Shown: positions 13,647 through 30,862 of the stretch, piece by piece | How the letters are laid out: the number at the start of each line of letters is the position of its first letter | Numbering within the stretch: the first letter of the stretch is position 1 | DNA from: Candidatus Aminicenantes bacterium | Lineage (GTDB): Bacteria; Acidobacteriota; Aminicenantia; Aminicenantales; JAFGBC01 | Assembly (NCBI GenBank): GCA_963702005.1 | Contig: OY969696.1 | Coordinates: 1,312,001 to 1,376,000 of the forward strand | Reading direction: 5' to 3' | Length of the DNA stretch: 64,000 nucleotides | Made by a program: the position numbers and the translations under genes | Notes under the pieces: model-generated | Database searches by the model: none | What the model was told of the DNA's origin: nothing | The model's input: only the letters and a program-made list of their open reading frames with translations

Positions 13647-13660
13647 CCAATGGTACCCGG

Positions 13661-14307: not shown

Positions 14308-14360
14308 TAAGGAATCCGGATTATTTGACGGTCGTAAAGGCGAGGCCGCCGAAAATTTTC

Positions 14361-14389: not shown

Positions 14390-14408
14390 CGAAATGGTTC
14401 GAGGGGTC

Positions 14409-15086: not shown

Positions 15087-15122
15087 ACGGCCGCGAGGCG
15101 CTGGTTCGGATCCTCTCCCGGC

Positions 15123-16289: not shown

Positions 16290-16302
16290 CCTGCCCTCCT
16301 TA

Positions 16303-16414
16303 TTGACCCGTTCGCCGACGCCAAGCCCCGCCTTTCAAGGCGGGGATGAGAGCGAGGCTCAGGGTTAATCATGAACAAGCCCCGGCCTTCAGGCCGGGGA
16401 GTCGATGATTTGAC
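16303..16414 (-). mobile_element. Non-autonomous palindromic element, family A copy 1
   Basis: TTGACCCGTTCGCCGACG end, hairpins CCCCGCC-TTTCAA-GGCGGGG and CCCCGGCC-TTCA-GGCCGGGG, terminal TTGAC; related to 40085 and 57991. Confidence 0.7.
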
Positions 16415-16438
16415 TTCACCGTTGATATAGGGTAAAAA
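16410..16438 (+). promoter_or_regulatory. Putative ara operon promoter whose -35 overlaps the element end
   Basis: TTGACT-17 bp-TAAAAT. Confidence 0.55.
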
Positions 16439-16514
16439 TAACAGAGCATGGCCAGGCAGTCAAAACGAAAGGGTTTCGAATTAGCGCGAGGATTTTCGCC
16501 TTGTTTTTTTATCA

Positions 16515-16530
16515 TTTGCGTTAACGTAAA
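16515..16530. promoter_or_regulatory. Candidate operator palindrome upstream of araB
   Basis: TTTGCGTTAACGTAAA, near-perfect 16-bp dyad in an AT-rich intergenic region. Confidence 0.3.
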
Positions 16531-16697
16531 CATCTTTGTATCTCTTTTCAGGGACGATTTCAAGCCCCAAGGATAGATAAGGATGCGATCCCTGCTCGCT
16601 TTTATTATCCCCTTGGGCCGGTATATGATAGGGACCGAAAAGGAAGGATGGATTTCCACCGCTCGGTCAAGGTCGGCCCGATGAGCTTGGAGGCGCG

Positions 16698-18410
16698 ATG
16701 AAAAGAGAGGCACCCCGCTACGGCTTGGGGCTCGATTTCGGGACGAACTCGGTCCGAGCTCTCCTTGTCGAGCTCCGCACCGGCCGGGAAACCGCGACCG
16801 CCGTCCACGCCTATGAGACGGGGCGGGAAGGGATCCTCCTGGACCGGTCCGACCCGAATCTGGCCCGCCAAAACCCGGCCGATTACCTGACCGGCACGAT
16901 CGCCTGCGTCCGGGCCGTGTTGGCCAAGGCCCGCAAAGCGGCCAAGGGTTTCGCCCCGGCCCGTGTTGTCGGGATCGGGATCGATACGACGGGATCGACG
17001 CCGCTTCCGGTGGATAGGGCGGGCGTTCCGCTCGCCTTCCGCAAGGAGTTCAGGCGAAACCCGAACGCCCAGGCCTGGCTCTGGAAGGATCACACCGGGT
17101 ACGCCGAGGCGGCCCAGATCACGGAGCTGGCGGCCCGCGAGCGGCCCGAGTACCTGGCCAAATGCGGCGGGACTTACTCCTCGGAGTGGTTCTTCAGCAA
17201 GATCCTTCACTGCCTTCGGACCGAGCCGCGCGTCTTCGAAGCGGCCTGGAGCTGGGTCGAGTGCTGTGATTATATCCCCGGTGTCCTGACCGGGACCGTA
17301 AAACCCGATGTCCTCAAGCGTGGCCGTTGCGCGGCCGGACACAAAGCCATGTTCAACGACGCCTGGGGGGGGTTGCCCGCCAAGGACTTCCTGTCCAAGC
17401 TCGATCCCCGGCTGGGCGAACTCCGCGACCGCCTCTACGGCAAGACCTACACGGCCGATGTCCCGGCCGGGGCTCTGACCGCGGAATGGGCCGGGAAGCT
17501 CGGCCTGGAAGCCGGGATTCCGGTCGCGGTCGGCGCCTTCGACGCGCATCTCGGAGCCGTCGGCGCCGGCGTCGCGCCGGGAACTCTCGTCAAGATCATC
17601 GGCACCAGCACCTGCGATATCACGGTTTGGCCGGCCGACCGCGCCTTGGCGGACATCCCCGGGCTGTGCGGTATCGTCGACGGGTCCGTCCTCCCCGGAT
17701 GCTTCGGGCTCGAGGCGGGACAGTCGGCCGTCGGCGATATTTTCAACTGGTTCGTGAGCGCCATCGCCCCGGGCGGGAAGAAGGAGGGCTCCCACGAGGC
17801 TCTGTCGCGAAAAGCGGCCCGGCTCAAGCCCGGACAGTCGGGACTGCTGGCCCTCGACTGGAACAACGGCAATCGGACCATCCTGGTTGACCAGCGCCTG
17901 ACCGGACTCCTCATCGGCCAGACCCTCCATACGGCGCCCGAGGAGATCTATCGGGCCTTGGTCGAAGCGACGGCGTTCGGGGCGCTCGCGATCATCAACC
18001 GTTTCGAGGAGTACGGCGTCAAGGTCGACCAGGTCGTCAACTGCGGAGGGATCGCCGAGAAGAATCCCTTCCTCATGCAGCTCTATGCCGACGTCCTCGG
18101 CCGCGAGATGAAGGTCGCCCGCTCGGCCCAAACCTGCGCCCTGGGATCGGCCATCGCCGGGGCGGTCGCGGCCGGGGCGGAGCGGGGCGGTTTCGCCGGC
18201 TTCGTGGAAGGCCAAGCGGCCGTCTGCGGCATCAAGCCTAAGGTCTACCGGCCCGACCCGGGGCGGCACAAGGTCTACCGCGAGCTTTACCGGCTCTATC
18301 GCCAGCTTCACGACGCCCTGGGCACCAAGTCCTGGACCGGGAACCTGCACAACGTCATGAAGGATCTCTTGGCCCTGCGGGACGTCCAGCGGTCGGCGAA
18401 AGGGCACTGA
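16698..18410 (+). CDS. araB: Ribulokinase
   Basis: GLDFGTNSVRA, DTTGSTP, LWKDHT, YSSEWF, GHKAM, DWNNGNR motifs. Confidence 0.93.
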   Translation: MKREAPRYGLGLDFGTNSVRALLVELRTGRETATAVHAYETGREGILLDRSDPNLARQNPADYLTGTIACVRAVLAKARKAAKGFAPARVVGIGIDTTGSTPLPVDRAGVPLAFRKEFRRNPNAQAWLWKDHTGYAEAAQITELAARERPEYLAKCGGTYSSEWFFSKILHCLRTEPRVFEAAWSWVECCDYIPGVLTGTVKPDVLKRGRCAAGHKAMFNDAWGGLPAKDFLSKLDPRLGELRDRLYGKTYTADVPAGALTAEWAGKLGLEAGIPVAVGAFDAHLGAVGAGVAPGTLVKIIGTSTCDITVWPADRALADIPGLCGIVDGSVLPGCFGLEAGQSAVGDIFNWFVSAIAPGGKKEGSHEALSRKAARLKPGQSGLLALDWNNGNRTILVDQRLTGLLIGQTLHTAPEEIYRALVEATAFGALAIINRFEEYGVKVDQVVNCGGIAEKNPFLMQLYADVLGREMKVARSAQTCALGSAIAGAVAAGAERGGFAGFVEGQAAVCGIKPKVYRPDPGRHKVYRELYRLYRQLHDALGTKSWTGNLHNVMKDLLALRDVQRSAKGH

Positions 18411-18411
18411 G

Positions 18412-19116
18412 ATGTACGGGGACCTCAAGGAAATCGTCTGGAAAGCCAACCTCGACCTCGTCCGGAACGGCTTGGTCGTCCTGACCTTCGGGAACGCGAG
18501 CGGAGCGGACCGGGCCAAGGGCGTCATGGCCATCAAGCCGAGCGGCCTGGATTACGCGGTCCTCAGGCCGGCCGACATGGTCGTCGTGGATCTGGACGGC
18601 CGGATCGTCGAGGGCAAACTCCGGCCGTCCTCGGATGCGCCGACCCATCTCGAACTCTACCGGGCCTTTTCCCAGGCGGGAGGCATCGTCCACGCCCACA
18701 GTCTTTACGCGACCATGTTCGCGCAGGCCGGCCGGGCCATCCCTTGCCTGGGAACGACCCACGCCGATTATTTCAACGGGCCGGTGCCCGTCACCCGGAG
18801 CCTGACGGCCCGGGAGGTCGCGAAGGATTACGAGGCGGCGACCGGCCGCGTCATCGCCGAGCGCTTCCGGGGCCTCAAACCCGCCGAGATGCCCGCGGTC
18901 CTGGTGGCCGGCCACGGCCCCTTCGCATGGGGCGCCACGGTCGAGGAGGCCGTTCGGCATGCCCTTATTCTCGAGCGTATCGCGCGGATGGCCTGGGGGA
19001 CGATGGCCTTGACCGGCAAGGCCCGGATGCTTCCCGGTTATCTGCTGCGCCGGCATTTCCACCGAAAGCACGGGCCGGACGCTTACTACGGACAGACGAA
19101 GGAGAAGTCAAGATGA
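18412..19116 (+). CDS. araD: L-ribulose-5-phosphate 4-epimerase
   Basis: TFGNAS, IKPSG, PSSDAPTH, GTTHADYF, HGPFAWG, KHG..AYYGQ. Confidence 0.93.
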   Translation: MYGDLKEIVWKANLDLVRNGLVVLTFGNASGADRAKGVMAIKPSGLDYAVLRPADMVVVDLDGRIVEGKLRPSSDAPTHLELYRAFSQAGGIVHAHSLYATMFAQAGRAIPCLGTTHADYFNGPVPVTRSLTAREVAKDYEAATGRVIAERFRGLKPAEMPAVLVAGHGPFAWGATVEEAVRHALILERIARMAWGTMALTGKARMLPGYLLRRHFHRKHGPDAYYGQTKEKSR

Positions 19117-20597
19117 TGAAGAACGTTCCGACCGTCAACCTGGGGATCGTCGCCGTCAGCCGCGACTGCTTCCCGATCGAGCTCTCCCGGACGCGCCGCA
19201 AGAGAGTCGCGGCCGAATGCCGGGCCAAGCGGGTCCCGGTCGTCGAGATCGAGACCATCGTCGAAAGCGAGAAGGACGTCCTGCGCGCCTTGGCCGAATT
19301 GCGGACGAAGAACGTCAATGCCCTGGTCGTCTTCCTGGGGAATTTCGGGCCGGAGGGGCCGGAGACCCTGCTCGCCCAGAAGTTCGACGGCCCGGTCATG
19401 TTCGCGGCCGCCGCCGAGGAGACCCAGAAGAACCTCATCCAGGGCCGCGGCGACGCGTTCTGCGGAATGCTCAGCGCCTCTTATAATATCGGACTCCGGA
19501 GGCTTCGGCCTTATATCCCCGAATACCCGGTCGGCACGGCGGCCAAGGTCGCCGCCATGATGGCCGCCTTCATCCCGATCGCCCGCGTCCGGCTCGGGCT
19601 CAAGGCGCTCAAGATCTTCGGGTTCGGCCCGCGGCCCCAGGATTTCCTGGCCTGCAACGCCCCCATCAAGCCGCTGTTCGACATCGGGGTGGAGGTCATG
19701 GAGAACAGCGAGCTCGACCTCTACGACATCTTCCTTAATGCCAAGGGACGGCCCGCCGTCAAATCGGTCGCCAAGGAGATGGCCAAGGAGCTGGGCGCCG
19801 GCAACACTTACCCGGGGATTCTCGAAAAGCTGGCCCAGTTCGAAGTCGCCCTGATCGAGTTCATGGAGGCCAATCTGGGAGCGTCGTCTTTCGGCGTCTT
19901 CGCCGACAAATGCTGGCCGTCCTTCGAGCGCTACTTCGGGTTCGTCCCCTGCTATGTCAACGCCCGGATGGCCGCCCGTGGCATCCCGGTCGCCTGCGAA
20001 GTCGACATCTACGGCGCCCTGAGCGAGTACATGGCGACCTGCGCCACGGAGCTGCCGGCGACGCTCCTCGACGTCAACAACACCGTCCCCGACGACATGG
20101 TCAAGGCCGCCAAGGCCAAGCTCAAAGGGTTCGGGCCGCGGGACCTGTTCATGGGCTTCCACTGCGGGAACACGGCCTCCGGCTGCCTGGTCGGGGGCGC
20201 CATCAAGTATCAGCTCATCATGAACCGGCTCATGGAGGGCGGAAAAAAGCCGGAGATCACCCTGGGGACGCTGGAGGGGAGAATTAAGCCCGGCCAAATC
20301 ACGATCTTCCGGCTCCAGTCGACGGCGGCGGGCGAGCTGCGCGCTTACGTCGCGGAGGGCGAGGTCCTGGACATCGACCCCAAGTCCTTCGGCGGCATCG
20401 GGGTCTTCGGAATCCGGGAAATGGGCCGCTTCTACCGCCACGTCCTCATCGAGAAGCGCTTCCCCCATCACACGGCCGTCGCCTTCGCCCACGCCGGGAA
20501 GGCGCTGTTCGCGGCCGTCCGCATGCTGGGCGTCGAGGACGTCGGCTTCAACCGGCCGGCCGGCTCATTCTACCCGGGCGAGAATCCGTTCGGGTGA
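19113..20597 (+). CDS. L-fucose/L-arabinose isomerase-family protein
   Basis: NFGPE, RGDAFCG, KCWP, ACEVD, FHCGN, FPHH motifs; ATGA overlap with araD. Confidence 0.82.
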   Translation: MMKNVPTVNLGIVAVSRDCFPIELSRTRRKRVAAECRAKRVPVVEIETIVESEKDVLRALAELRTKNVNALVVFLGNFGPEGPETLLAQKFDGPVMFAAAAEETQKNLIQGRGDAFCGMLSASYNIGLRRLRPYIPEYPVGTAAKVAAMMAAFIPIARVRLGLKALKIFGFGPRPQDFLACNAPIKPLFDIGVEVMENSELDLYDIFLNAKGRPAVKSVAKEMAKELGAGNTYPGILEKLAQFEVALIEFMEANLGASSFGVFADKCWPSFERYFGFVPCYVNARMAARGIPVACEVDIYGALSEYMATCATELPATLLDVNNTVPDDMVKAAKAKLKGFGPRDLFMGFHCGNTASGCLVGGAIKYQLIMNRLMEGGKKPEITLGTLEGRIKPGQITIFRLQSTAAGELRAYVAEGEVLDIDPKSFGGIGVFGIREMGRFYRHVLIEKRFPHHTAVAFAHAGKALFAAVRMLGVEDVGFNRPAGSFYPGENPFG

Positions 20598-20614
20598 TTT
20601 CCGGAGATACGCGG

Positions 20615-21748
20615 CTAGAGATCTTCCACCCAACCGTTAAGCCTGCCGATATTCCGGTTGAGGAGTTCACAGACGAATTCGTCGGGCTCAATGCAGACTT
20701 CGGGCGGCAGGACGCCGACCCCCTTGACTTTGCCTTCAACGAGCATTTGCGCCCCGACCGAAGCCGGGATGCCGGTCCCCTGGGCAATCCGTCCGGCCGA
20801 TGAATAAAATACGCGGCGGGTTTTGGTTCCCTTTTTTCCTTTGACCGCGACGCGCAAGGCTCCCTGCTTGGAGACACCCGTCAGGCCCAGACATCTTTTA
20901 TGGAAGAGAGCCGCCGCAAAATCCATCGGATCCGCCTCCCCTCCCTGGACCTGGAGCGGGCCTTCGCTGCGGCCGATGCGGCCGAGGGCTACGATCCACT
21001 CGTTGACGACGGCCGGATTAAAGGAGGCTTTGTCATCGACGACTTTGACCCCCGGGAACGACCGGGACAGGGTGATCGGCTCCGGGTGTCCGATATGGAA
21101 GACGTCAAGGGCCCCGACCGGATCGGGAAACTCGATCCGTTCTTTTCCGTCGACGAAGGATTGAACCTCGACGAGCCGGCCGTCCCGAAAGGTGAGCGCG
21201 GTGTGGGACAGCGAATACAATAGATGATAGGAGAGGGCCAGCCCTCCGGGGTCGGAGCCGCTCATGACCCAAGCCGTATGGATTTCCTCGACCTCGTCCA
21301 GTTGATTGGCGGCGGCCCGGACCAGGACATTATTCACGCCGGGGCTCGCGCCCAAACCCAAGATGATCGTAATCCCGGCCCGGCGGGCCGACTCATCCAG
21401 GTCGTACATCTCAAACGTGGTCAGGTAATCATCATTGATGTCGACCAGCGACACGCCGGCCTTGATGGCGGCGCGAGCGACCAGAGTTTCGTATTTATAA
21501 TTCGGGCCCGCGCAATTGACCACGACGTCGAAACCCTTCATGAGTCCGGCCAGATCGCCCGGCTGCCGCAGGTCCAGGGCTAAGGCCGAGGTCTTGGCCG
21601 CCCCCCCTTTCTGCCGCGCCAAGACGGTCTTGGCTTTAGCCAGGCTTCGCGTGGCGACGACAATTTCACCGAATTTTCCCGACCGATAAAGGTCCCGGAT
21701 CGCCTCTTCGCCCATTTCTCCCGAGCCTAAAACCAGCGCACGTTTCAT
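20615..21748 (-). CDS. Saccharopine dehydrogenase-like NAD(P)-dependent oxidoreductase
   Basis: LGSGEMG Rossmann motif, NCAGP, DINDD, GLGASPG, GHPEP. Confidence 0.85.
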   Translation of the reverse strand: MKRALVLGSGEMGEEAIRDLYRSGKFGEIVVATRSLAKAKTVLARQKGGAAKTSALALDLRQPGDLAGLMKGFDVVVNCAGPNYKYETLVARAAIKAGVSLVDINDDYLTTFEMYDLDESARRAGITIILGLGASPGVNNVLVRAAANQLDEVEEIHTAWVMSGSDPGGLALSYHLLYSLSHTALTFRDGRLVEVQSFVDGKERIEFPDPVGALDVFHIGHPEPITLSRSFPGVKVVDDKASFNPAVVNEWIVALGRIGRSEGPLQVQGGEADPMDFAAALFHKRCLGLTGVSKQGALRVAVKGKKGTKTRRVFYSSAGRIAQGTGIPASVGAQMLVEGKVKGVGVLPPEVCIEPDEFVCELLNRNIGRLNGWVEDL

Positions 21749-21766
21749 GATGCCCTCCGATAAATC

Positions 21767-22981
21767 CTAAAGGGCTTCCGGGCCGGCTCTCTTCAAGCGC
21801 GGCTCGATCGGTCCGCCGTAAATCCTGTACTCATCGAGTTGACAGGAACGGATCAGCCGGCCCTTGTAGAGCATCAGATTGAGGCAGCCGTCACATTGGT
21901 TGATCCGCCCAGCGAAGACCTCATTCGGTTGTTGGAGATTGATGCATTGGACGTAAATCTTCTCGAAGAGCGTCCTGGGGTTGCGCAGCGACGCCTTGAG
22001 GAACCGCCCCAGCGCTTTCCGGACTTGTCCGTCGACGAGGGACGGCAAAAAAATTTTCATGCCCGGCGAGGTCTGTTCTTGGAAGGCGCAATAGCGTCCT
22101 CGTCTCAGGTGATGGAAGACCTGGACCAGTTCCGCCGTTTTCGGCCCCAGGGCGCCGTAGACCTGACGCGTCGTGCCGACCGGCAGCATGATGAGAAATT
22201 TAAGGCTTTCGGGGGAGGTCGTCCCGTTCAAGTACGCGCAGGGCCTGACCTCGGGGAATCGGTCCATAAGAAGGTCGGCCATGCGATCCGTCGTCACGCT
22301 CAAATCCTCCGGACGGCGGGTCGTACACTGAAGCCGACTGGTATCGATCGGCCGGCCGTTGACTTCATAGACCCAATCGTCCCGGAGGAGGAGCGATCGG
22401 AAGGCGATCAGAGAGACGTGCTGGACTTTATGGATATTCGCCCTGGACCAGGTGATGATGTCGGGCAGAGAGGCCAGCGTCGAGGGAAAGACGGTGATGT
22501 TATAGCCGCATTGAACTCCGCCGAGATCCCAGAGCATGTCCGCGTATCTTTGGCGGAGGGTGTTCATCTCGCCCTCCGTTTTTCCGACCCAGCCGGGCCG
22601 CTGCTGGCCCGCATCGACATGGATATAGAACAAGACCAGGCCGGCGCGCTTGAGCTCCGCGGCCAGGTCCCGGGTCAGCTTCTCGCCGTTGGTGAGGATC
22701 ATGGGCTTCATCCCGTGCCGGGCGATGAACCGGACGACTTCGACGAGGTCCGGATAGAGCAGCGGCTCTCCGCCGGCGATAGCGATCCGTTCGCAATGAA
22801 GCATCTCCCGGAGGGTGAGGATCTCCTGTTCGAGCTCGGCCAGCGGCCGGTGTCCTTCCAGGGAGTGGCGGAAGCAGCCCGGGCAGTGAAGGTCGCAGGC
22901 GTCGGTCACCTCAATCCAGGCGCCCGGGTTGTCGGTCCTGGACCAGGGAAAACGGTAGAGTGTTTCTCGGGACAGGCTCAT
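21767..22981 (-). CDS. Radical SAM protein, paralog 3
   Basis: CDLHCPGC, GGEP, TNG; C-terminal CxxC-x13-C. Confidence 0.9.
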   Translation of the reverse strand: MSLSRETLYRFPWSRTDNPGAWIEVTDACDLHCPGCFRHSLEGHRPLAELEQEILTLREMLHCERIAIAGGEPLLYPDLVEVVRFIARHGMKPMILTNGEKLTRDLAAELKRAGLVLFYIHVDAGQQRPGWVGKTEGEMNTLRQRYADMLWDLGGVQCGYNITVFPSTLASLPDIITWSRANIHKVQHVSLIAFRSLLLRDDWVYEVNGRPIDTSRLQCTTRRPEDLSVTTDRMADLLMDRFPEVRPCAYLNGTTSPESLKFLIMLPVGTTRQVYGALGPKTAELVQVFHHLRRGRYCAFQEQTSPGMKIFLPSLVDGQVRKALGRFLKASLRNPRTLFEKIYVQCINLQQPNEVFAGRINQCDGCLNLMLYKGRLIRSCQLDEYRIYGGPIEPRLKRAGPEAL

Positions 22982-24183
22982 GGGACCCCCTCCCTGCGTT
23001 TGACGGGACGAATCTCGCCGCCGAACATCCGATATTCATCCAGCCGGCAGGAATTGATCAGCCGTCCTTGATAGTGCATCATGTTGGCGCATCCGTCGCA
23101 AAGATTGACCAGGTCGCCCAGGATCTCGTTGGGCTGCTGGAGGTGGATGCTCTGAACGTAGATTCTATCGAACAGCCGGGCGGGATTCCTCAAGCACGCC
23201 TCAAGGAAGCTCCGGAAGGCCCGCCGGATCTCAGGGTCGAGCGCGGACAGGACAAATATTTTTTTCCCCGCGGGACGCCGGAGGAAGGCGCAATAGCGGT
23301 TCAGCCACAGATGGTAAAAAACCTGGACGATCTCCATGGTTTTAGGGCCCAGGACGCCGTAGATTTTCCGGGTTGAGCCGACAGGGGCGGCGATGAGGTA
23401 TTTCGTGGTCAGGGGATCGGCTGTTCCGCTCAGGTAGGCGCAAGCACGAAGACCGGGAATTTGCTTCTCCAGGACGGCGAACATGTCCTCCGTGGTCAGG
23501 CTGATCTCCTCGGGAGCGGGGACGTTTTCTTGATAGGGAGCCAGGTCCACTTTTTCTCCGTTGACCCGGTAGTCGAGATCCTCATTCCCGGGGATAAGTC
23601 GGAAAGCGATGAGTGAAATGTGCTGGACCTTGTGGATGTTCGACAGGCACCATTCCACGACCCCCGGAAGGTCATTCAAGCTGGACCGATAGACGGTCAG
23701 GTTATAGCCGCATTGCACCCCGCCCAATTCCCAGATTAAATCGGCATATCGCTGCCGGAGGGCGTTCATGCCCAGCTCGCTTCGGCCTTCCCAGCCCGGC
23801 CTGTTTTGTCCGCTGTCGACATGAAAGTGAAATTTGGCCAGCCCGGCCTTCTTGAGGTCCTTGGCCAGAGACCAGTCCAGTTTTTCGCCGTTGGTCAGGA
23901 TGACGGGTTTAATCCCGCGTCTGGCCATAAAATCCACGACCTCGACAATATGGGGATAGATGAGGGGTTCTCCGCCGGCGATGGCCATGCTGTCGCAGCG
24001 GGTCAGCCGATGGCCCTCCAGAATGTCCTTCCGCACGGCTTCGAGCGGCCGATGTCCCTCCAGCCGGTGGCGGTAGCATCCGCGGCACTCCAGGTCGCAT
24101 TCATCCGTGACTTCCACCCAAGCCCCGGGATTATCCGTCTTGGACCAGGGGAATCGATAAAGGCGGTTCCGATCAAGCGCCAT
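22978..24183 (-). CDS. Radical SAM protein, paralog 2
   Basis: CDLECRGC, GGEP, TNG; C-terminal CxxC-x13-C; start chosen by alignment with paralogs and GAGGAG RBS. Confidence 0.9.
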   Translation of the reverse strand: MALDRNRLYRFPWSKTDNPGAWVEVTDECDLECRGCYRHRLEGHRPLEAVRKDILEGHRLTRCDSMAIAGGEPLIYPHIVEVVDFMARRGIKPVILTNGEKLDWSLAKDLKKAGLAKFHFHVDSGQNRPGWEGRSELGMNALRQRYADLIWELGGVQCGYNLTVYRSSLNDLPGVVEWCLSNIHKVQHISLIAFRLIPGNEDLDYRVNGEKVDLAPYQENVPAPEEISLTTEDMFAVLEKQIPGLRACAYLSGTADPLTTKYLIAAPVGSTRKIYGVLGPKTMEIVQVFYHLWLNRYCAFLRRPAGKKIFVLSALDPEIRRAFRSFLEACLRNPARLFDRIYVQSIHLQQPNEILGDLVNLCDGCANMMHYQGRLINSCRLDEYRMFGGEIRPVKRREGVP

Positions 24184-24841
24184 GGGCGGCTCCTCGCGGG
24201 ACGCGTTCCATCCGAATCCCGGTCCGGCTCCAGACGGCATAAAAGGCCAAGGCCAGAACCACGCCCGCGACGACGTCCCAGGCGACGTGCTCTTTTAAGG
24301 TCAGAGTCGACAGGGAGATCAGGACCGTCATGAGAACCAGGCCGGATCGCACCGGTCGCGAAGGCCATACCGAAAAAGCCAGGCAGGTGGGGAAGACGGT
24401 CAAAGCGACATGCATGGAAGGAAGACAGGCAAAAGGATGAAGCCACAACATTCGATGGACTGTTTGTTGAAGGGCGATCATCCGTGTCGGGCAAGGCGAG
24501 GCGGCGGCGAAGACATACTCGAGCCCCGCACCGGTCAAGATCATGAGGACATAGGCGGCAACAGCTCTATGGAACATTCGATGGGGGAGTTTCCAGACGA
24601 TCAGGAAGGCTCCGAGAAGGACGTAGAGATCGCCCAGATAATAAAAGCAGGCCGTCCATCCCCAGTAGGGAATCCAGGCGTCAATGAAGATGCTGTAATC
24701 ATGGATGGTCAGCGGGGCCCATTGGGTCAAAGCATTGACTAAACGGTAGCAGGCGATGTGGAAAAGAGCGACGCCCAGGATCATCACCAGATGTCCCAGC
24801 CGATGGCCGTTCGAAAGCTCGGGAGCTCTTGCCGTATTCAT
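24173..24841 (-). CDS. PAP2-superfamily integral membrane protein (lipid phosphatase/phosphotransferase-like)
   Basis: Multiple hydrophobic segments; LPSMHVA and LKEHVAWDVVAG motifs. Confidence 0.75.
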   Translation of the reverse strand: MNTARAPELSNGHRLGHLVMILGVALFHIACYRLVNALTQWAPLTIHDYSIFIDAWIPYWGWTACFYYLGDLYVLLGAFLIVWKLPHRMFHRAVAAYVLMILTGAGLEYVFAAASPCPTRMIALQQTVHRMLWLHPFACLPSMHVALTVFPTCLAFSVWPSRPVRSGLVLMTVLISLSTLTLKEHVAWDVVAGVVLALAFYAVWSRTGIRMERVPRGAAHGA

Positions 24842-26049
24842 TCCGCTTGTTTTCTTGGGCTTGGGACCGTGGTGATAAGATCGCCGAAAATCCGGTATTC
24901 ATCAAGCTGACAGGGATTGATTAATTTGTCTTGATAGATCATCGGATTCACGCAGCAATCACAAAGATTTTTTTTCCCCTCAATCATCTCGTTGGGCTGC
25001 TGAAAGTTAATACACTGAACATAAATCTTTTCGAATATTCTAATGGGATTCCTAACTACGGCTTTTAAATAGTTGACAAACGTTTTTCTGACTTCTTTGT
25101 CAACAAGGGAAAGAATAAACAATTTCTTCCCGACGACCGGATTCTTAAAAAAAGAACAGTATCTCCCTTTGAATAAATGATAAAAAACTTGAACAAGCTC
25201 GACTGTTTGTCTTCCCAAAAAACCGTATGGTCCTCTTTTGCTCCCCGCAGTGAGAATAACTAAATGTTTGTTCGTTTTGTAGGCCGTTGTCCCATTTATG
25301 TAGGCACAGGGCCGGAAGTCAGAATAGCGATTTTGGAGCATTCCAAACATTTCTTCGGTTGAAATATTAATTTCTTCAAGATTCGAATAGCCGATCGGGA
25401 CCGCGCTTGTGTCGATTTTCCGGCCATTGACCACATAGTCCATTCCCTCGACGATGGGCAGGCCCCGAAAGGCGATAAAAGTAATATGCTGGACTTTATG
25501 GATATTGGCCCGGCACCATTCCACGATCTCGGGAATATATTTTAGGTTTGAGCGAAATACCGTGACGTTATACCCGCATTGAATCCCGCCGACTTCCCAG
25601 AGCAAATCGGCATAATGTTGCCTGGCTTCGTTCAATTCGACTTCATTTTTCCCGGTCAAACCCGGCCTGTTCTGAGCGCTGTCGATATGAAAGTGGATCT
25701 TGCTCAAGCCCGCTTTTTTTAGCGCCAAAGCATAATCCCTGGTTAATTTTTCTCCATTGGTGAAAAGCACGGATTTCATTTTATGCTCGGTAATAAATTT
25801 CACGACTTCTACAAGATGAGGATAAATGAGCGGTTCTCCGCCCGCTATGCACAGACAATCGCAGTTGGTTAATTCCTGCACCGCAACAATATCATTTTTA
25901 ACCTCTTCCAAGGACCTATGCCCCTCCAGCCTGTGTCTGTAACAATCGGGACAGGACAAGTCACAATCGTCCGTTACTTCCACCCATCCGCCCTGATTAT
26001 CCGTCCTTGACCAAGGGAGCTTATAAAAATTTCTCCTCATTTCGTTCAT
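24838..26049 (-). CDS. Radical SAM protein, paralog 1 (low GC)
   Basis: CDLSCPDC, GGEP, TNG; C-terminal CxxC-x13-C. Confidence 0.9.
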   Translation of the reverse strand: MNEMRRNFYKLPWSRTDNQGGWVEVTDDCDLSCPDCYRHRLEGHRSLEEVKNDIVAVQELTNCDCLCIAGGEPLIYPHLVEVVKFITEHKMKSVLFTNGEKLTRDYALALKKAGLSKIHFHIDSAQNRPGLTGKNEVELNEARQHYADLLWEVGGIQCGYNVTVFRSNLKYIPEIVEWCRANIHKVQHITFIAFRGLPIVEGMDYVVNGRKIDTSAVPIGYSNLEEINISTEEMFGMLQNRYSDFRPCAYINGTTAYKTNKHLVILTAGSKRGPYGFLGRQTVELVQVFYHLFKGRYCSFFKNPVVGKKLFILSLVDKEVRKTFVNYLKAVVRNPIRIFEKIYVQCINFQQPNEMIEGKKNLCDCCVNPMIYQDKLINPCQLDEYRIFGDLITTVPSPRKQAE

Positions 26050-26052
26050 GGC

Positions 26053-27690
26053 TTATTCCTCCTTCGGCAGCATTGAACGATTAATAAAGTCCTCCCCGCA
26101 TCTCTCAATATCATTAATCTTTTTGTTTGTCCTATCGATGATGAATCTGGACTGTTTTTGAAAATGCACGAAGAGCACAGCCAGCGTTACGGCCGATTCA
26201 ATCGCCCTTGGATTTCTGAAAAGAACGGTCAACAGCATTTTCCAATAGTACCAGCCTGTTGTTCTATCGAATCCCGCTTTAATGCAGACTTTCGAGAATA
26301 TGTACGCGTTCTTCAGAGTTCCACTAATGCCGGGTCTATATTTGTTGGCGGGGTTTAAATTAAGGCTCGTAGAGGTCACTCTTTGATAATAATGACCCGG
26401 ATCATAGACATATTTTAGGATACGGACAAAGTCTCTTAAAATATCCACCCTGGGCCTGGCGGTCATAAAATTTAGGCCGCTGGACATTTGATCAATTTTA
26501 ATCTCATGATCCGCCGTCGGCGTGCTCTCCTCAAACAACCTTCCTTCTTTTTTTAGGCGTTTAGCCAATTGTGTATTCGGCAATGCGTAGAGTGTTCCTA
26601 TCATGGCCATGCATATCCCCGAATCCTGAATACAGTTAATGATCTTTTCAGCGGTTTGATCGTTTTCATTATCAAAACCGATAATAAAACCCGAATCCAC
26701 TATCATCCCGAACGAATAAATCTTCTTAATAGTTTTGACAATCGGCCTCTGGAGATTTTGTTCCTTGTGGGCCAGCTTCAATACCTCGTCTTCCGGACTT
26801 TCAATGCCGATATTGATAAACCTAAAATCGACATCCTTCATCATCCGCAGAAGATCCTCATCATCCGCGATATTGAAGGGAGCCTCGGTCCCGAAATAGA
26901 AAGGATAATGGTTCGTTTCGGACCATTCTCCGAGCGCGGTCAAAAGCTCTTTGGCGCTCCTTTTATTTCCGATAAAATTATCATCGACAAAAAACACATG
27001 ACCCCGATACCCCAATTCATAAAGGCATTGAATTTCTTCAATGATTTGACCGGCCGTTTTTGTCCGCGCTTTCCTGCCGAATAATTCAATGATATCGCAG
27101 AACTCGCAATGAAAGGGACAACCGCGGGAAAATTGGATTCCGGCCATGAGATAATCTTTGGGCCTGACCAAGTCAAACCTGGGAACCACGGCTTGAGTCA
27201 TATCCGTCATTTCAGTTGATTTGTATTCGCCGCTCCCGCAACCTTTATCCAGGTCTTTTATGAAATTTGGAATGGCAATCTCTCCTTCTCCACATAAAAG
27301 GTAATCCGCCGATTGATACAAGCTGGGCTGAGATGTGGGATCCGGACCGCCAACGACAACCGGACAACCAAAGCGATGGCTTTTATCAATTATCGAAAAT
27401 GTGCCCTCCTGCTGACACAGCATGCCTCCCGTACAAACAATATCCGCCCATTCCAAGTGTTCATCCCGGAGAGGCTTAACATTTTCATCAACCAACTTAA
27501 ATTTCCATTGCTGGGGCAGCAACGCCGCCACCGTCATTAGACCCAACGGCGTGACGGGATATTTTGCTCCCGCTATTTTACATACATCGATATAGTTTAA
27601 ATAACTGAATTCCGAAAATTTCGATTGGACGATGAGACAGTTGGTCCCTTTTTCCAATAAACCATTGACAGGCTTTCCTGAACGGTTCAT
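26053..27690 (-). CDS. Cobalamin-binding radical SAM protein (HpnP/Mss-like architecture, probable C-terminal DUF4070)
   Basis: PLGLMTVAALLP and VVVGGP B12-domain motifs, SRGCPFHCEFC, VDDNFIGN, GFIIGFD, ALPNTQL..RL..EGRL. Confidence 0.88.
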   Translation of the reverse strand: MNRSGKPVNGLLEKGTNCLIVQSKFSEFSYLNYIDVCKIAGAKYPVTPLGLMTVAALLPQQWKFKLVDENVKPLRDEHLEWADIVCTGGMLCQQEGTFSIIDKSHRFGCPVVVGGPDPTSQPSLYQSADYLLCGEGEIAIPNFIKDLDKGCGSGEYKSTEMTDMTQAVVPRFDLVRPKDYLMAGIQFSRGCPFHCEFCDIIELFGRKARTKTAGQIIEEIQCLYELGYRGHVFFVDDNFIGNKRSAKELLTALGEWSETNHYPFYFGTEAPFNIADDEDLLRMMKDVDFRFINIGIESPEDEVLKLAHKEQNLQRPIVKTIKKIYSFGMIVDSGFIIGFDNENDQTAEKIINCIQDSGICMAMIGTLYALPNTQLAKRLKKEGRLFEESTPTADHEIKIDQMSSGLNFMTARPRVDILRDFVRILKYVYDPGHYYQRVTSTSLNLNPANKYRPGISGTLKNAYIFSKVCIKAGFDRTTGWYYWKMLLTVLFRNPRAIESAVTLAVLFVHFQKQSRFIIDRTNKKINDIERCGEDFINRSMLPKEE

Positions 27691-27789
27691 TTTCTTTGAG
27701 ATCAGTAAGATTGATTAAAATTTCGTTTTCTGCTGAGACGGCCCCGGGCGGCCTTTCGCAGCGGAAATCCCTTCTCCCCGTTCAGGAAA

Positions 27790-27818
27790 AGCATAACGCG
27801 AAGCTCACAACATGTCAA
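27790..27818 (-). promoter_or_regulatory. Putative promoter of the radical SAM operon
   Basis: Minus-strand TTGACA-17 bp-TATGCT. Confidence 0.65.
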
Positions 27819-27846
27819 GGGAAGCTGGAGCGAGCGGCTCGGTCGC

Positions 27847-28236
27847 CTAGGGGATCAAGCTTTTAATCTTCTTGAGAAAGGCGGCGGGATCGACCGGCTT
27901 TTCGATAACGGCGTCGGCCTGCGAATCCCTGACGATATGCTTGAGCGCGACTTTTTTGTAGACGGCCGTGATCAGAATGACCTTGGTCCGGGCGAGGTCG
28001 GGATCGCTCTTGATCCGGGCACAGAGGCCGAGGCCGTCCATCCGGGGCAGGACGACGTCGCTGATGACGAGGTCCGGCTTCTCTTTGCGGACGAGCTCCA
28101 GCCCGGCCTGCCCGTCCTTGGCCGAGCGGACCAGGAAGTCGTTTTGGGACAGGATGCCCTCGAGAAGACGGAGCGTCACCGGGTCGTCCTCGATGACGAC
28201 GATTTTTCTGAACATCGCTTGGTACTTTATATTCAT
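27847..28236 (-). CDS. Single-domain response regulator
   Basis: IVVIEDD, DLVISD, DGL, ITA, EKP. Confidence 0.88.
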   Translation of the reverse strand: MNIKYQAMFRKIVVIEDDPVTLRLLEGILSQNDFLVRSAKDGQAGLELVRKEKPDLVISDVVLPRMDGLGLCARIKSDPDLARTKVILITAVYKKVALKHIVRDSQADAVIEKPVDPAAFLKKIKSLIP

Positions 28237-28360
28237 GTTTCTAAGTCCCCGCCTAATTTAGTACGACTATATAGCTCGAGCCGGATTCTTGTCAAGCCTT
28301 CTCCGTCTTGTGCCCCGGCGCGGTTTCCGCTATCCTAAAGTCGAGGAAAGGGAGGCCGCT

Positions 28361-30862
28361 ATGAAGGGTGAAGGAACGATGAATACGTGCGTCTTCAAGC
28401 GCTCGCTCGCGCTCGGTTTGCTCTCGGCGATCCTGGCGGTTTCGTCTTTTGCGGCGTCGGTCCAGACGGCGCGCTCGGCCGCGCCGGATTGGTCTCAGAC
28501 AAAAATCTGGTACCAGCATCCGGCCGCTCGCTGGGAGGAAGCGTTCCCGGTCGGCAACGGGCGGCTGGGCGCCATGGTCTTTGGAAGGACCGACGAGGAG
28601 CGGATCGCCCTCAACGAGGAGACCTACTGGTCGGGCGGGCCCTATTCCCAGACGGTCCCCGGCGCGTCCCAAAGCCTGGCCGAGATCCGGCGGCTCATCT
28701 TCGCCGGCGAGTATATCAAAGCCCACCGGCTGTTCGGCCGGACCATGATGGGCTATCCCGTCGAGCAGCAGAAGTACCAGGCCTTGGGAGATCTCCTTTT
28801 GCGTTTCCCGTCCCCGGAAAGCGGAGAGGCCGTCTATTACCGTCACGAGTTGGACCTTGACCGAGCCCTGGTCGTCACCTCCTACTCTCAGGGCGGCGTC
28901 CGGTTCGTAAGGGAGGTTTTCGCGTCGCCCCTGGACCAGGTCATCGTCGTCCGGCTTACGGCCGACAAGCCCGGTCAGGTCACCTTCCGGGCCGAACTCC
29001 GCGGCGTCAGGAACGAAGCCCACTCCAACTACGCGACGGATTACTTCCGGATGGACGGCTTGGGCGGCGACGGCCTGGTCCTGCGCGGCCGCTCCGCGGA
29101 CTATCTCGGCGTCCCGGGCCGGGTCCGCTACGAAGCCCGCCTCCTGGCCGTCCCCGAGGGAGGGGTGATGGCTGTCGACGACCTCTCACTGGCCGTCAGC
29201 GGGGCCGACGCCGTCACCCTGTTCATAGCCGCGGCCACGAACTTCGTCAGCTTCAAGGACGTCAGCGCCGATCCGGCCGAGAGGGTGAGCACGGCCCTGG
29301 CCGCCGTCCGGAATAAATCCTACACGGACATCAAGGACGCCCACATCCGCGAGCACCAGAGGCTCTTCCGGCGCGTCTGGCTGGACCTGCCCCGGACGGA
29401 GGCGGCCGCCCGGCCCAGCGACGAGCGCATCGCGTCCTACGAAAACGAATCCGACCCGTCGCTGGCGGTCCTCGTTTTCCAGTTCGGCCGCTATCTTCTC
29501 ATCTCCTCGTCGCGGCCCGGAACCCAGCCGGCCAACCTTCAGGGGATCTGGAACGCGTCGATGAACCCGCCCTGGGACTCCAAGTACACGACGAACATCA
29601 ACACCGAGATGAATTACTGGCCGGCCGAAGTCGCCAACTTGAGCGAATGCGCCGAGCCCCTGTTCCGGATGATCAGCGAGCTCAGCGAGCAGGGAAGCGA
29701 GGTCGCCCGCGAGCACTACGGCGCCCGGGGCTGGGTCTTCCATCAAAACACGGATATTTGGCGGGCCGCGGCGCCCATGGACGGGCCGAACTGGGGGACG
29801 TTCTCGACCGGCGGGGCCTGGCTTTGCACTCACCTCTGGGAGCACTACAGGTTCAGCGGCGACCTCGACTTTCTGCGGGAGGTCTATCCCATTCTCAAAG
29901 GGAGCGCCGAGTTCTTCATGGACACCCTTGTCGACGACCCGAGGGGGAATTGGCTCGTTACCAACCCTTCGACCTCGCCCGAAAACTTTCCGCTCCGGCC
30001 GGGGAACGACCCTTTCTTCGACGAGGTCACGGCCGGCATGAGTCCGGGGACGACCCTCTGCGCCGGGTCCACCATCGACCTCCAGATCCTCAACGACCTG
30101 TTCGACGCCGTGACCGAAGCGGCCCGGGTCCTGGACATCGATTGGGACTTCAGAAACAAGGCGGTGGCCGTCTGGCAGAAGCTGGCCCCGATGCAGATCG
30201 GGAAGGACGGCGGCCTCCAGGAATGGCTCGAAGACTGGGGCCAACAGGAGAAGAGCCACCGGCACATCTCGAACCTTTACGGTCTTTTCCCCGGGAACCA
30301 CATCTCGCTCCGCGGGGCCCCCAAGCTGGCCGGCGCCTGCGGGGTCGTTCTCGACCAGCGCGGCCTCGAAGGGAACGGCTGGTCCTCGGCCTGGAAGATG
30401 GCCTGCTGGGCCCGTCTCCGCGATGCGGCCAAGGCCATGGCCAACTTCCGGCATGGGATCCGCAACTACACGCTCCCCAACCTGTTCTCGACCTGCTCCA
30501 AGGCCCTCCAGGTCGACGGGAGCCTGGGGCTTACGGCCGCCATCGCCGAAATGCTCCTCCAATCCCAAGAGAACGAGATCCTGATTCTTCCCGCCCTGCC
30601 CGCGTCCTGGGAACGTGGCGAGGTCCGGGGGCTTTGCGCCAGGGGCGGGTTCGAGGTCGATCTCGTTTGGGAAGGCGGCCGCTGGATTCAAGCCCAAGTC
30701 CGTTCCAAGGCCGGCAAGTTCTGCCGGATCCGGACGGATGTCCCCGTCGATGTGACTTTGGCGGGCCAGAAGGTCAAGCTCTTCCGGCCGGAGGCGACGG
30801 TAGTCGAGTTCCGGACCAAGGCCGGGGATGCCTATCTCGTCCGGCCCAAGATGGGCCGCTGA
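28361..30862 (+). CDS. GH95 alpha-L-fucosidase, secreted
   Basis: PVGNGRLGAM, FGRYLLISSSR, PANLQGIWN, NINTEMNYW, HRHISNLY, QVDG. Confidence 0.93.
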   Translation: MKGEGTMNTCVFKRSLALGLLSAILAVSSFAASVQTARSAAPDWSQTKIWYQHPAARWEEAFPVGNGRLGAMVFGRTDEERIALNEETYWSGGPYSQTVPGASQSLAEIRRLIFAGEYIKAHRLFGRTMMGYPVEQQKYQALGDLLLRFPSPESGEAVYYRHELDLDRALVVTSYSQGGVRFVREVFASPLDQVIVVRLTADKPGQVTFRAELRGVRNEAHSNYATDYFRMDGLGGDGLVLRGRSADYLGVPGRVRYEARLLAVPEGGVMAVDDLSLAVSGADAVTLFIAAATNFVSFKDVSADPAERVSTALAAVRNKSYTDIKDAHIREHQRLFRRVWLDLPRTEAAARPSDERIASYENESDPSLAVLVFQFGRYLLISSSRPGTQPANLQGIWNASMNPPWDSKYTTNINTEMNYWPAEVANLSECAEPLFRMISELSEQGSEVAREHYGARGWVFHQNTDIWRAAAPMDGPNWGTFSTGGAWLCTHLWEHYRFSGDLDFLREVYPILKGSAEFFMDTLVDDPRGNWLVTNPSTSPENFPLRPGNDPFFDEVTAGMSPGTTLCAGSTIDLQILNDLFDAVTEAARVLDIDWDFRNKAVAVWQKLAPMQIGKDGGLQEWLEDWGQQEKSHRHISNLYGLFPGNHISLRGAPKLAGACGVVLDQRGLEGNGWSSAWKMACWARLRDAAKAMANFRHGIRNYTLPNLFSTCSKALQVDGSLGLTAAIAEMLLQSQENEILILPALPASWERGEVRGLCARGGFEVDLVWEGGRWIQAQVRSKAGKFCRIRTDVPVDVTLAGQKVKLFRPEATVVEFRTKAGDAYLVRPKMGR

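Follow-up and report, generated by a model that had tools for sequence, protein, structure and literature searches.

What does a six-gene operon do that encodes four radical SAM (rSAM) enzymes, a PAP2-like membrane protein and a reductase? The operon lies in the window, which is the whole stretch of 64,000 nucleotides analysed here. Six co-directional open reading frames (ORFs), all on the minus strand, are present where a sequence-only reading had placed them, with the following Pfam domains in operon order: B12-binding, Radical_SAM and DUF4070; Radical_SAM; PAP2_3/PAP2; Radical_SAM; Radical_SAM; and Sacchrp_dh_NADP with Sacchrp_dh_C. A gap of 3 nt lies between B12-rSAM and rSAM1; rSAM1 and PAP2_3 overlap by 4 nt, PAP2_3 and rSAM2 by 68 nt, and rSAM2 and rSAM3 by 4 nt; 18 nt separate rSAM3 from the saccharopine-dehydrogenase-like (SDH-like) gene. 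The longest of these overlaps falls to 11 nt with the second ATG of rSAM2 (24183) as its start, which the paralogue alignment favours. The single promoter that had been proposed is also present (Table 1); a scan of the region gave 12 promoter-like sites against 5.2 expected, and therefore the match by itself is weak evidence. Nothing significant was found in Rfam across 19500-29500.

Table 1. Coordinates of the operon, its surroundings and related core genes (window positions, or positions on C1 where so marked).
Feature	Position	Strand	Remarks
Island (operon and promoter), 7,250 bp	20600..27849		96-bp or 36-bp spacer instead in two same-genus genomes
SDH-like NAD(P)-dependent oxidoreductase, 377 aa	20615..21748	-	GSGEMG close to N-terminus
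rSAM3, 404 aa	21767..22981	-	Radical_SAM; second orthogroup; protein used for structure model
rSAM2, 420 aa	22978..24240	-	Radical_SAM; probable start 24183; orthologue of L004:10001, tree support 100/99
PAP2_3 membrane protein, 222 aa	24173..24841	-	5 hydrophobic segments
rSAM1, 403 aa	24838..26049	-	Radical_SAM; GC3 0.498; on low-GC patch
Low-GC patch	24850..27750		GC about 0.35-0.49, flanks about 0.60; spans B12-rSAM and rSAM1
B12-rSAM with DUF4070, 545 aa	26053..27690	-	CxxxCxxC at C191/C195/C198; GC3 0.495
Sigma-70-like promoter TTGACA-17-TATGCT	27790..27818	-	Within island; 10/12 consensus positions
Receiver-only response regulator	27847..28236	-	Directly upstream; own promoter 28295-28266; GC3 0.83
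Tandem-GNAT acyltransferase	C1:491097-492254		Core gene outside island
Spt-like alpha-oxoamine synthase	C1:1437853-1439079		Core gene outside island
Second Spt-like alpha-oxoamine synthase	C1:2396082-2397233		Core gene outside island

The operon forms an accessory island, probably gained by horizontal transfer. It is absent at the matching site in two genomes (L159 in G001 and L164 in G002), where the flanks are 78-89% identical to those of the window by blastn, and the upstream response regulator is native flank outside the island. The patch holding the B12-rSAM and rSAM1 genes is foreign; in the genome as a whole, 129 of 2872 segments of 1.5 kb have a GC content below 0.47. The host of this 7-kb gene island is an uncultured sediment or wetland bacterium.

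The three rSAM proteins other than the B12-rSAM are paralogues, mutually 53-55% identical. This paralogy is absent from the sequence-only reading. In the tree, rSAM1 falls in a clade of Aminicenantes and Bacteroidales sequences (9 rows, support 100/98). None of the curated NCBIfam cut-offs is reached by the three paralogues, and the family to which they belong is large, unnamed and so far unstudied. Its invariant motifs are CxxxCxxC, GGEP and CX2CX13C, the last of which is retained even in distant fused members; only three C-terminal cysteines are invariant, and SPASM gave no Pfam match in the paralogues. With the model for Tes (NF045702) they score 37-52 bits (cut-off 450), about equal to the scores of unrelated SPASM rSAMs in the same genome, and a search of the genome with this model returned nothing above the cut-off.

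The closest resemblance is to Tes, or GDGT-MAS (PDB 7tol and 7tom), an archaeal rSAM enzyme that couples lipid tails and attacks unactivated carbons in them. The family sequence profile has 7tol as its top match in the PDB (E 7.8e-15). The rSAM3 model (pLDDT 91.9, pTM 0.91), compared with 48,161 chains, aligns best with GDGT-MAS 7tom_A (Z 23.9, rmsd 4.2 A) over 321 residues spanning positions 1-390 of the model, whereas the runners-up are viperin (Z 17.9 over 232 residues) and MoaA (Z 17.5 over 261). With Foldseek, 7tol and 7tom rank first as well, with 436 alignment columns versus about 240-320 for the others. By this model, the paralogues appear to share a Tes-like fold over their full length, which leaves their chemistry unfixed. 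They differ from Tes in being only 17% identical and about 100 residues shorter, and in being bacterial and accompanied by sphingolipid-type rather than archaeal ether-lipid genes. GDGT-MAS also has, according to a review, a SPASM domain with extra clusters, in contrast to the three C-terminal cysteines of the present family.

Related loci (31 distinct ones in at least five phyla; 10 are under 6 kb long) point to the pathway in which the family may act. The partners, with confirmation from Pfam, are a tandem-GNAT acyltransferase (12 loci), PAP2_3 (11), an SDH-like reductase (10), a serine-palmitoyltransferase-like (Spt-like) alpha-oxoamine synthase (4), a sulfotransferase (4) and a CDP-alcohol transferase (3). 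At least one of these is found in 23 of the 31 loci, and two or more rSAM paralogues in 19. The other eight loci have no partner gene; they include four of the five distant ones (32-38% identical; Bdellovibrionota, Myxococcota and Bathyarchaeia), among them L024, where genes for a PlsC-like acyltransferase and for an acyl-CoA dehydrogenase lie close by instead. Two fusions add to this picture. In P0249, a single sequence, a PAP2_3 part (36% identical to the PAP2 protein of the window, E 1e-29) is joined to an rSAM part (39% identical to rSAM2, E 2e-94). In P0391, found on 38 contigs, a PlsC-type acyltransferase (PF01553) is joined to the rSAM domain of the family, which suggests glycerolipids or other acyl lipids equally with sphingolipids. 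Judged by their sequences, the recurrent partners are of sphingolipid type. Conservation of the neighbourhood was thus borne out for the lipid-gene partners but not for the full six-gene set.

The B12-rSAM of the window type has a close orthologue in none of the 31 loci (other B12 types occur in four). No close orthologue is found among 60 relatives, the best match being 41% identical, whereas homologues in other phyla are 62-82% identical; most of the close homologues, spread over many anaerobic phyla, are genes that stand alone, and the paralogue family is present in none of 80 metagenome loci that hold B12-rSAM relatives. The B12-rSAM is a foreign low-GC gene and no conserved partner of the cluster. 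In architecture (B12-binding and rSAM, with or without DUF4070) it resembles the class B enzymes HpnP/HpnR, Gmm and the ladderane protein TIGR04072, but its scores against the HpnR, HpnJ and TIGR04072 models are 50.5, 59.6 and 78.9 bits against cut-offs of 650, 577.6 and 360. Mss had also been counted among such B12-rSAMs; this is not borne out by section 2.2 of a 2026 review, where Mss is described as a bacterial rSAM and Tes homologue that couples fatty-acyl tails, nor by the Mss paper, in which 'B12' occurs four times and the two passages inspected are entries of the reference list.

The PAP2 protein, best matched by PAP2_3 and PAP2 in Pfam and weakly by PAP2_C, retains PSxH and HxxxD, whereas KxxxxxxRP, the first phosphatase motif, is missing. 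It therefore resembles a phospho-head-group transferase more than a lipid-phosphate phosphatase, and we propose the former function for it. By its motif pattern it may be SMS/IPC-synthase-like. It shares with IPC and sphingomyelin synthase-type PAP2 proteins the Pfam family, the multi-pass membrane character, the His and His/Asp motifs and the absence of KxxxxxxRP, but with the phosphoinositol dihydroceramide synthase model it reaches 15.5 bits (cut-off 480). The nearest solved relatives of the SDH-like protein are saccharopine and carboxyspermidine dehydrogenases.

Seven of 61 genomes of the order have the rSAM family, three the SDH-like gene (one just 32% identical) and two PAP2; in G055 all three are on a single contig. 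The GNAT-like gene is present in 61 of 61 and an Spt-like synthase in 59, none of the latter above the NCBI cut-off of 640. Since the synthase and GNAT genes lie outside the island and are present in 54 relatives without the rSAM family, their tie to the island is indirect. The synthase of the related clusters scores higher with the serine palmitoyltransferase model NF047600 (493 bits) than with BioF (394) or Kbl (363). Like the Spt-bCerS-CerR ceramide pathway, the related clusters combine an Spt-like synthase with a protein of N-acyltransferase fold and with Rossmann reductases, in a parallel logic of condensation, N-acylation and keto-reduction. In contrast to that pathway, the synthase is under the NCBIfam Spt cut-offs, the acyltransferase, a tandem GNAT of 390 aa, has no family name, the reductase is saccharopine-dehydrogenase-like, and there are two to four rSAM genes besides. 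In the 2026 review on lipid rSAMs, sphingolipids appear only in the general introduction and no sphingolipid rSAM enzyme is included.

The full-length fold match of rSAM3 to GDGT-MAS, the PlsC fusion and a PlsC-like gene close to a distant Bdellovibrionales member are also compatible with glycerolipid chemistry. The paralogues would then be Mss/Tes-type enzymes that join or cyclise fatty-acyl tails (diabolic-acid, iso-diabolic-acid or brGDGT type), with methyl branches added by the B12-rSAM and a phosphate head group edited by PAP2. The related loci bear the label Aminicenantes, a lineage grouped with Acidobacteria, which would also fit. Cultured Acidobacteria make iso-diabolic acid, to judge from the titles of references. 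This explanation is unlikely, however: the recurrent neighbours are Spt-like synthase, tandem GNAT, reductases, PAP2_3 and sulfotransferases, with no glycerolipid-synthesis gene recurring among them; all family members stay under the Tes cut-off, no Tes orthologue was found in the genome, and the SPASM cysteine set is missing from the family. The brGDGT product offered earlier as an example finds no support. Mss, compared by description only, is alike in proposed reaction type, but it acts on glycerolipid fatty acids, in contrast to the Spt-like, GNAT and PAP2_3 context here.

More doubtful is a specialised amino-lipid natural product, secreted or serving as a signal or antibiotic rather than as a bulk membrane lipid, in which an amino ketone from an alpha-oxoamine synthase would undergo rSAM tailoring, reductive amination by the SDH-like enzyme and N-acylation. 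A patchy accessory distribution and an island are typical of specialised metabolism, SDH-like enzymes carry out reductive amine-carbonyl condensation, and alpha-oxoamine synthases also make autoinducers (217-224 bits with the CqsA-type model). Such a product is disfavoured by the recurring membrane head-group enzymes (PAP2_3, and a CDP-alcohol phosphatidyltransferase accompanied by a nucleotidyltransferase), by the fusion of rSAM to membrane PAP2_3 and by the lack of exporter, NRPS and PKS genes in the operon of the window.

The spacing of CX2CX13C is also that of MoaA. In MoaA, three Cys residues and the substrate serve as ligands of the auxiliary cluster. Maturation of a peptide (RiPP), against which the sequence-only reading had argued, or of a nucleotide or tetrapyrrole cofactor is nevertheless very improbable: apart from this MoaA-like motif, weak matches to the AhbC, NirJ, MoaA, PqqE and RiPP-maturase models of NCBIfam speak for it, all confined to the rSAM core and far under the cut-offs (MoaA 46.9 bits, cut-off 325), while the operon has no space for a precursor ORF and no SPASM, RRE or protease domain in Pfam, GTP-binding context is lacking, neighbours and fusion partners are lipid enzymes, and the structure model is matched best by a lipid enzyme, GDGT-MAS, which aligns over 60 residues more than MoaA does and takes in the extra domain, to which MoaA does not align.

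The explanation that we prefer, at about an even chance, is that the operon was acquired horizontally and serves as an accessory module for the oxygen-independent tailoring of a sphingolipid-like (amino-alcohol or ceramide-type) membrane lipid. The lipid-gene neighbourhood, the PAP2_3 and PlsC fusions and the full-length GDGT-MAS fold match together uphold the earlier view of a probably anaerobic lipid-tailoring system. The lipid backbone would be supplied from elsewhere by the core Spt-like synthases and tandem-GNAT acyltransferase. Each Tes-like rSAM would convert SAM to a 5'-deoxyadenosyl radical, which would take a hydrogen off an unactivated alkyl-chain carbon, and the paralogues would each form a bond at a different position, assisted by the C-terminal CX2CX13C auxiliary cluster. 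By analogy with GDGT-MAS, this bond would most likely be C-C (tail-to-tail coupling, cross-link or ring closure), in agreement with the earlier idea of cross-linking or cyclisation; desaturation or oxidation would be the fall-back reactions. The B12-rSAM may add a methyl branch and the SDH-like enzyme may reduce a keto or imine group, and PAP2_3 would place a phospho-head group on a free hydroxyl of the lipid, in the manner of IPC and sphingomyelin synthases.

The six minus-strand genes described by the sequence-only reading were recovered by ORF calling and Pfam searches, and the promoter that it had placed before them was found as described (see the table). The junctions of the operon are tight, with intergenic gaps of at most 18 nt. 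The earlier argument against a RiPP pathway also holds, because the cluster contains no precursor ORF and no RRE or protease domain detectable with Pfam. None of the six proteins reaches a curated NCBIfam cut-off. No riboswitch or other Rfam family was found near the operon, nothing in the whole window attains an Rfam gathering score, and the window contains no tRNA genes. On the whole, what had been observed in the DNA was confirmed, while its interpretation as a lipid-tailoring system stood only in part.

Coordinates of the operon and of related features (G000, genome of the window; C1, its chromosome; G001, same-genus genome without the island; L numbers, loci of related genes; rSAM, radical SAM)
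Feature	Location	Strand	Description
Operon	window 20615-27690	minus	six genes
Gene 1, B12-rSAM		minus	Pfam B12-binding, Radical_SAM, DUF4070
Genes 2, 4 and 5, rSAM1, rSAM2 and rSAM3		minus	Pfam Radical_SAM
Gene 3, PAP2 protein		minus	Pfam PAP2_3/PAP2
Gene 6, SDH-like reductase		minus	both Pfam saccharopine-dehydrogenase domains
Promoter	window 27818-27790		TTGACA-17-TATGCT
Island flanks	window 17260-20599 and 27850-28191		adjoining in G001
Low-GC part of island	window, about 24,777-26,700
Sugar-utilisation genes	window 15123-20597 and 28289-30862		setting of the island
Spacer in G001	L159:3357-3452 (= window 20600/27849)		inverted repeat
Backbone genes of G000	C1:491097, C1:1437853, C1:2396082
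Tandem-GNAT gene of G000	C1:491097-492254 (L035:7095-8255)		386 aa
Spt-like synthase and following genes	L034 (G000:C1:1428000-1447999), 9824-16222
Second B12-rSAM of G000	C1:1306113-1307462
Gemmatimonadales ORFs	L016:5359-8103, L020:11306-14128		914-940 aa
Sulfotransfer_3 genes	L053:4310-5398, L057:11880-12878		adjoining family members
SPASM-type rSAM gene and ~560-aa protein	L005:4110-7058, L011:2261-5408, L055:12277-15416		second module

The three rSAM paralogues are 53-55% identical to one another and have in common the motifs CxxxCxxC, GGEPL and a C-terminal CX2CX13C. Their family has 644 matches, with uninformative names, among the candidates scored in a set of 5.8 billion proteins, and forms 319 clusters (representatives at 50% identity, E ≤ 1e-30). 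Seventeen of 18 remote full-length members have no NCBIfam match at E ≤ 1e-20, and the matches of the eighteenth (P0378) all lie below the cut-offs. Several orthogroups are resolved in a tree of 49 members: rSAM2 pairs with the member at L004:10001 (support 100/99), rSAM3 clusters with members from L003 and L004 (100/100), and rSAM1 falls inside a clade of Aminicenantes and Bacteroidales (100/98), which is consistent with a low-GC donor. A divergent 'D' group occurs in 12 loci and is missing from the window.

Judged from sequence scores, the likeness of the family to Tes (GDGT-MAS), the archaeal lipid tail coupler, is confined to the rSAM core and does not exceed that of unrelated rSAMs of the same genome. 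Against the Tes model NF045702 (cut-off 450 bits), rSAM1, rSAM2 and rSAM3 score 52.0, 37.1 and 50.7 bits, over the core alone; no protein of G000 exceeds the cut-off, and its other rSAMs reach 53 bits. Homologues of Mss, the bacterial membrane-spanning lipid synthase, have been defined by E ≤ 1e-50 and at least 30% identity to two verified Mss proteins (Sahonero-Canavesi et al. 2022, PMC13159169).

The structure of rSAM3 was modelled with AlphaFold, and its comparison with known structures favours a lipid enzyme. The model is confident (pLDDT 91.9), and in an all-against-representatives search its first-ranked match is GDGT-MAS rather than a cofactor or peptide rSAM (Z 23.9, rmsd 4.2 Å over 321 residues, model residues 1-390 against chain residues 47-481). 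The next match has Z 17.9, and GDGT-MAS leads viperin, MoaA (reviewed in PMC9026282) and SuiB by six Z units and at least 60 aligned residues. Foldseek likewise ranks GDGT-MAS first (TM 0.56, normalised to the query). The predicted structure of rSAM3 has the overall fold of GDGT-MAS, including its C-terminal half. The cysteine set of the family is different and smaller: the SPASM-type cysteines for two auxiliary clusters are lacking, SPASM PF13186 has no match in the three paralogues at E ≤ 0.01, and the only invariant C-terminal cysteines are C363, C366 and C380, with C63 and C158 nearly invariant. By the full-length match of the model, the family is a shortened structural relative of a lipid-tail-joining enzyme. 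A complex prediction for rSAM2 and the PAP2 protein (score 0.00) gave no answer and counts neither for nor against an association.

The conservation of the gene neighbourhood, which had been suggested as a check, was assessed across 31 distinct loci; Aminicenantes, Gemmatimonadota, Bacteroidota, Ignavibacteriota, Bdellovibrionota and Myxococcota are among the lineages represented. Lipid-gene partners recur beside the family, whereas the window-type B12-rSAM does not. The partners, supported by Pfam matches, are a 390-aa tandem-GNAT protein (12 loci), PAP2_3 (11), the SDH-like reductase (10), alpha-oxoamine synthase (4), sulfotransferases (4) and CDP-alcohol phosphatidyltransferases (3); since 10 of the 31 loci are shorter than 6 kb, these counts are lower bounds. 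Eight loci contain none of these partners. Further neighbours are SDR and epimerase-type reductases, FabH, GT2, a PlsC-like acyltransferase and acyl-CoA dehydrogenase. Sulfotransferases adjoining family members include two Sulfotransfer_3 genes, one of them in a locus (L057) that also has a GT2 gene. Beside three of the clusters lies a second module, in which a SPASM-type rSAM gene accompanies a protein of about 560 aa that has no Pfam match and is 26-29% identical between the loci.

Two natural fusions connect the rSAM family with lipid enzymes. One, PAP2_3::rSAM (P0249), is represented by a single sequence; the other, PF01553 acyltransferase::rSAM (P0391), occurs on 38 contigs. The latter, of 561 aa, combines a PlsC-type domain with a distant family member that is 26% identical to rSAM3 and retains CX2CX13C; one of its source labels reads 'archaeon'. 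Two proteins recovered when larger fused forms (803-2290 aa) were sought align over at most one third of the query and are uninformative.

For the cluster synthase, the serine palmitoyltransferase (Spt) model scores best among the alpha-oxoamine-synthase models, although below its cut-off. The L004 cluster is fuller than the island and comprises the synthase, PAP2, three rSAMs, GNAT and SDH; its synthase scores 493 bits and the two copies in G000 score 479 and 510, so that neither the cluster synthase nor those of the genome itself attain the NCBIfam cut-off of 640 bits for Spt of the bacterial sphingolipid pathway (Spt, bCerS and CerR). The 390-aa partner has a weak Pfam GNAT match in all seven members, and its model is of low confidence (pLDDT 63.7), its Foldseek matches being used only for the putative tandem-GNAT assignment. 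The tandem-GNAT gene is present in all 61 genomes of the order and the Spt-like synthase in 59; therefore these backbone genes are core genes, and the island contributes tailoring functions only. Sphingolipid-like lipids may be made throughout the order.

The tandem-GNAT gene of G000 carries no family name, and its copies in the order are 61-87% identical; the cluster-linked copies are paralogues, about 52-56% identical. Next after the Spt-like synthase of G000 at L034 come genes for a FadL/TodX-type outer-membrane transporter, a nucleotidyltransferase, an amino-acid permease and a B12-rSAM that resembles BchE and HpnJ (234 and 227 bits, both under the cut-offs).

The PAP2 protein, with its five hydrophobic segments, exceeds the gathering scores of PF14378 (PAP2_3; 38.6 bits, cut-off 27) and PF01569 (30.9, cut-off 27.2). 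PAP2 lipid-phosphate phosphatases carry the motifs KX6RP, PSGH and SRX5HX3D. In seven aligned homologues, PSxH and HxxxD are invariant and no conserved K/R...RP block was found, and a phosphatase with all three motifs was rejected, the first being absent. Sphingomyelin and inositol phosphorylceramide (IPC) synthases, which move phospho-head groups onto ceramide, have PSxH and HxxxD without the first motif. The protein is distant from phosphoinositol dihydroceramide synthase (NF052609; 15.5 bits against a cut-off of 480).

The SDH-like protein belongs to the saccharopine-dehydrogenase superfamily by its two Pfam domains (68.6 bits, cut-off 25.1; 40.8 bits, cut-off 31), and its dinucleotide-binding motif GxGxxG reads GSGEMG at residues 8-13. 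Among solved structures, those closest to it are saccharopine and carboxyspermidine dehydrogenases (PDB 4rl6, 4ina and 8deb), and it is far from carboxynorspermidine synthase (NF043000; 33.2 bits against 800). The group that it reduces may be a ketone or an imine.

The B12-rSAM matches PF04055 (66.1 bits) and DUF4070 (103.9), and falls slightly below the cut-off of PF02310 (31.8 against 32.1). It has the B12-binding and Radical_SAM architecture of the Class B rSAM lipid methylases, but scores far below the curated cut-offs of HpnR (50.5 against 650), HpnJ (59.6 against 577.6) and TIGR04072 (78.9 against 360). Its close homologues (62-82% identical) occur in KSB1, Cloacimonetes, Spirochaetes, Ignavibacteria, Bacteroidales and others, and its best match among 60 relatives in the order is 41% identical.

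The B12-rSAM is not a conserved cluster partner, and the earlier expectation that the six genes would be conserved together is not borne out. The window type is found in none of the 31 loci, four of which have B12-rSAMs of other types, and no family member occurs in 80 metagenome loci that hold B12-rSAM relatives; the two closest of these (67-68% identical) are on short contigs of 3-5 kb. A close orthologue is absent from the genomes behind L001, L004, L005, L008 and L009, only one of which has any match (39% identical). The equal length of the contigs, 6836 bp, that carry P0156 (a B12-rSAM, 68% identical) and the proteins P0008 and P0118 hints at one further possible linkage. A second B12-rSAM, located some 4.5 kb before the window begins, is 34% identical to the window copy, and its relatives (37-41% identical to the window copy) occur in 13 of the 60 relatives. 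Two Gemmatimonadales loci have, where B12-rSAMs stand elsewhere, a long ORF with a weak B12-binding match only; this ORF may have been called too long or may represent a fused protein.

The operon is a mobile, mosaic island of mixed origin. The genome is closed (4.31 Mb, 60.4% GC). By blastn, the flanks of the operon adjoin in G001 with 96 bp between them and are 36 bp apart in another same-genus genome (G002), and at that site G000 holds 7,250 bp comprising the entire operon and its promoter. The spacer in G001 is a single long inverted repeat with arms of about 25 nt between convergent fucose-isomerase-like and response-regulator genes, and is probably a bidirectional terminator. It has been replaced by the island, with no target-site repeats left: no direct or inverted repeats flank the island ends, and the repeats detected merely mirror the three paralogous genes. 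The GC3 is 0.495 in the B12-rSAM and 0.498 in rSAM1, 0.67-0.78 in the other four island genes, and 0.83 in the flanking response regulator. The surrounding sugar-utilisation genes (aldose 1-epimerase, FGGY kinase, class II aldolase, fucose-isomerase-like protein and GH95 fucosidase) are unrelated to the function of the island.

Within the order, the rSAM family is found in seven of 61 genomes (G000 included), the SDH-like gene in three (one just 32% identical) and the PAP2 gene in two; in a relative (G055) these three lie together on a single contig (L003/L052). In one wetland run, a 538-nt contig with 25 differences crosses the right island junction, and contigs 92-96% identical span SDH to PAP2; thus related populations carry at least this part. 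The low-GC part has nearly no coverage in four read sets, an observation given no weight here, and no read record covers the left junction with 31 nt on either side.

The best-supported reading treats the operon as an accessory module that tailors a sphingolipid-like lipid independently of oxygen, both the chemistry and the substrate class being inferred. The Tes-like rSAMs would functionalise unactivated chain carbons, most likely via C-C bond formation, the B12-rSAM would add a methyl group, and the reductase and the PAP2_3 transferase would complete the backbone and head group. The main rival is the example given in the sequence-only reading, coupling of glycerolipids to diabolic-acid or brGDGT-type products; it draws on the same Tes-like fold and is favoured by the PlsC fusion, but does not account for the recurrence of Spt-like, GNAT and sulfotransferase genes beside the family.

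A more specific form of the sphingolipid reading, doubtful at present, is that the paralogues are the first sphingolipid rSAM enzymes, acting as anoxic Tes-like C-C couplers of ceramide alkyl chains that make very long or membrane-spanning ('bola') sphingolipids. From the euxinic Black Sea, Ding et al. 2024 (PMC11334938) describe 1-deoxyceramides whose acyl chains are C32-C39 long and carry sulfate or sulfono groups. If true, ceramide coupling would explain these chains, and it is consistent with the sulfotransferases beside family members. The same source reports diverse sphingolipids in anoxic water, with bCerS and CerR often absent near Spt-like genes, raises the possibility that non-homologous enzymes replace these two, and shows by linking metagenomes with lipidomics that anaerobic bacteria of many phyla produce sphingolipids of odd structure that have no known tailoring enzymes. 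The lipid rSAMs known so far work on archaeal ethers, hopanoids, ladderanes, bacterial diacids and one polyketide. The accessible text of a 2026 review (PMC13459092) treats Tes, Mss, Gms, GrsA/B, Gmm, Cds, HpnH/J/P/R, Jaw5 and the ladderane enzymes, and no sphingolipid enzyme. Full-text literature searches turned up no description of the gene set; genes next to Spt-like scaffolds may be listed in the supplement of PMC11334938, which could affect novelty. What is new here is the family, its lipid context and the mobile mosaic operon; rSAM lipid tailoring is of an already known kind.

By virtue of its 319 clusters, the Tes-like fold of the model and the repeated co-encoding or fusion with lipid enzymes, the rSAM family is a concrete candidate for the oxygen-independent tailoring of the odd sphingolipids of anaerobes. 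The island illustrates how such modules cross phyla and are reassembled from parts of differing origin, and the family could be a source of new enzymes that form biomarkers for anoxic sediments and wetlands.
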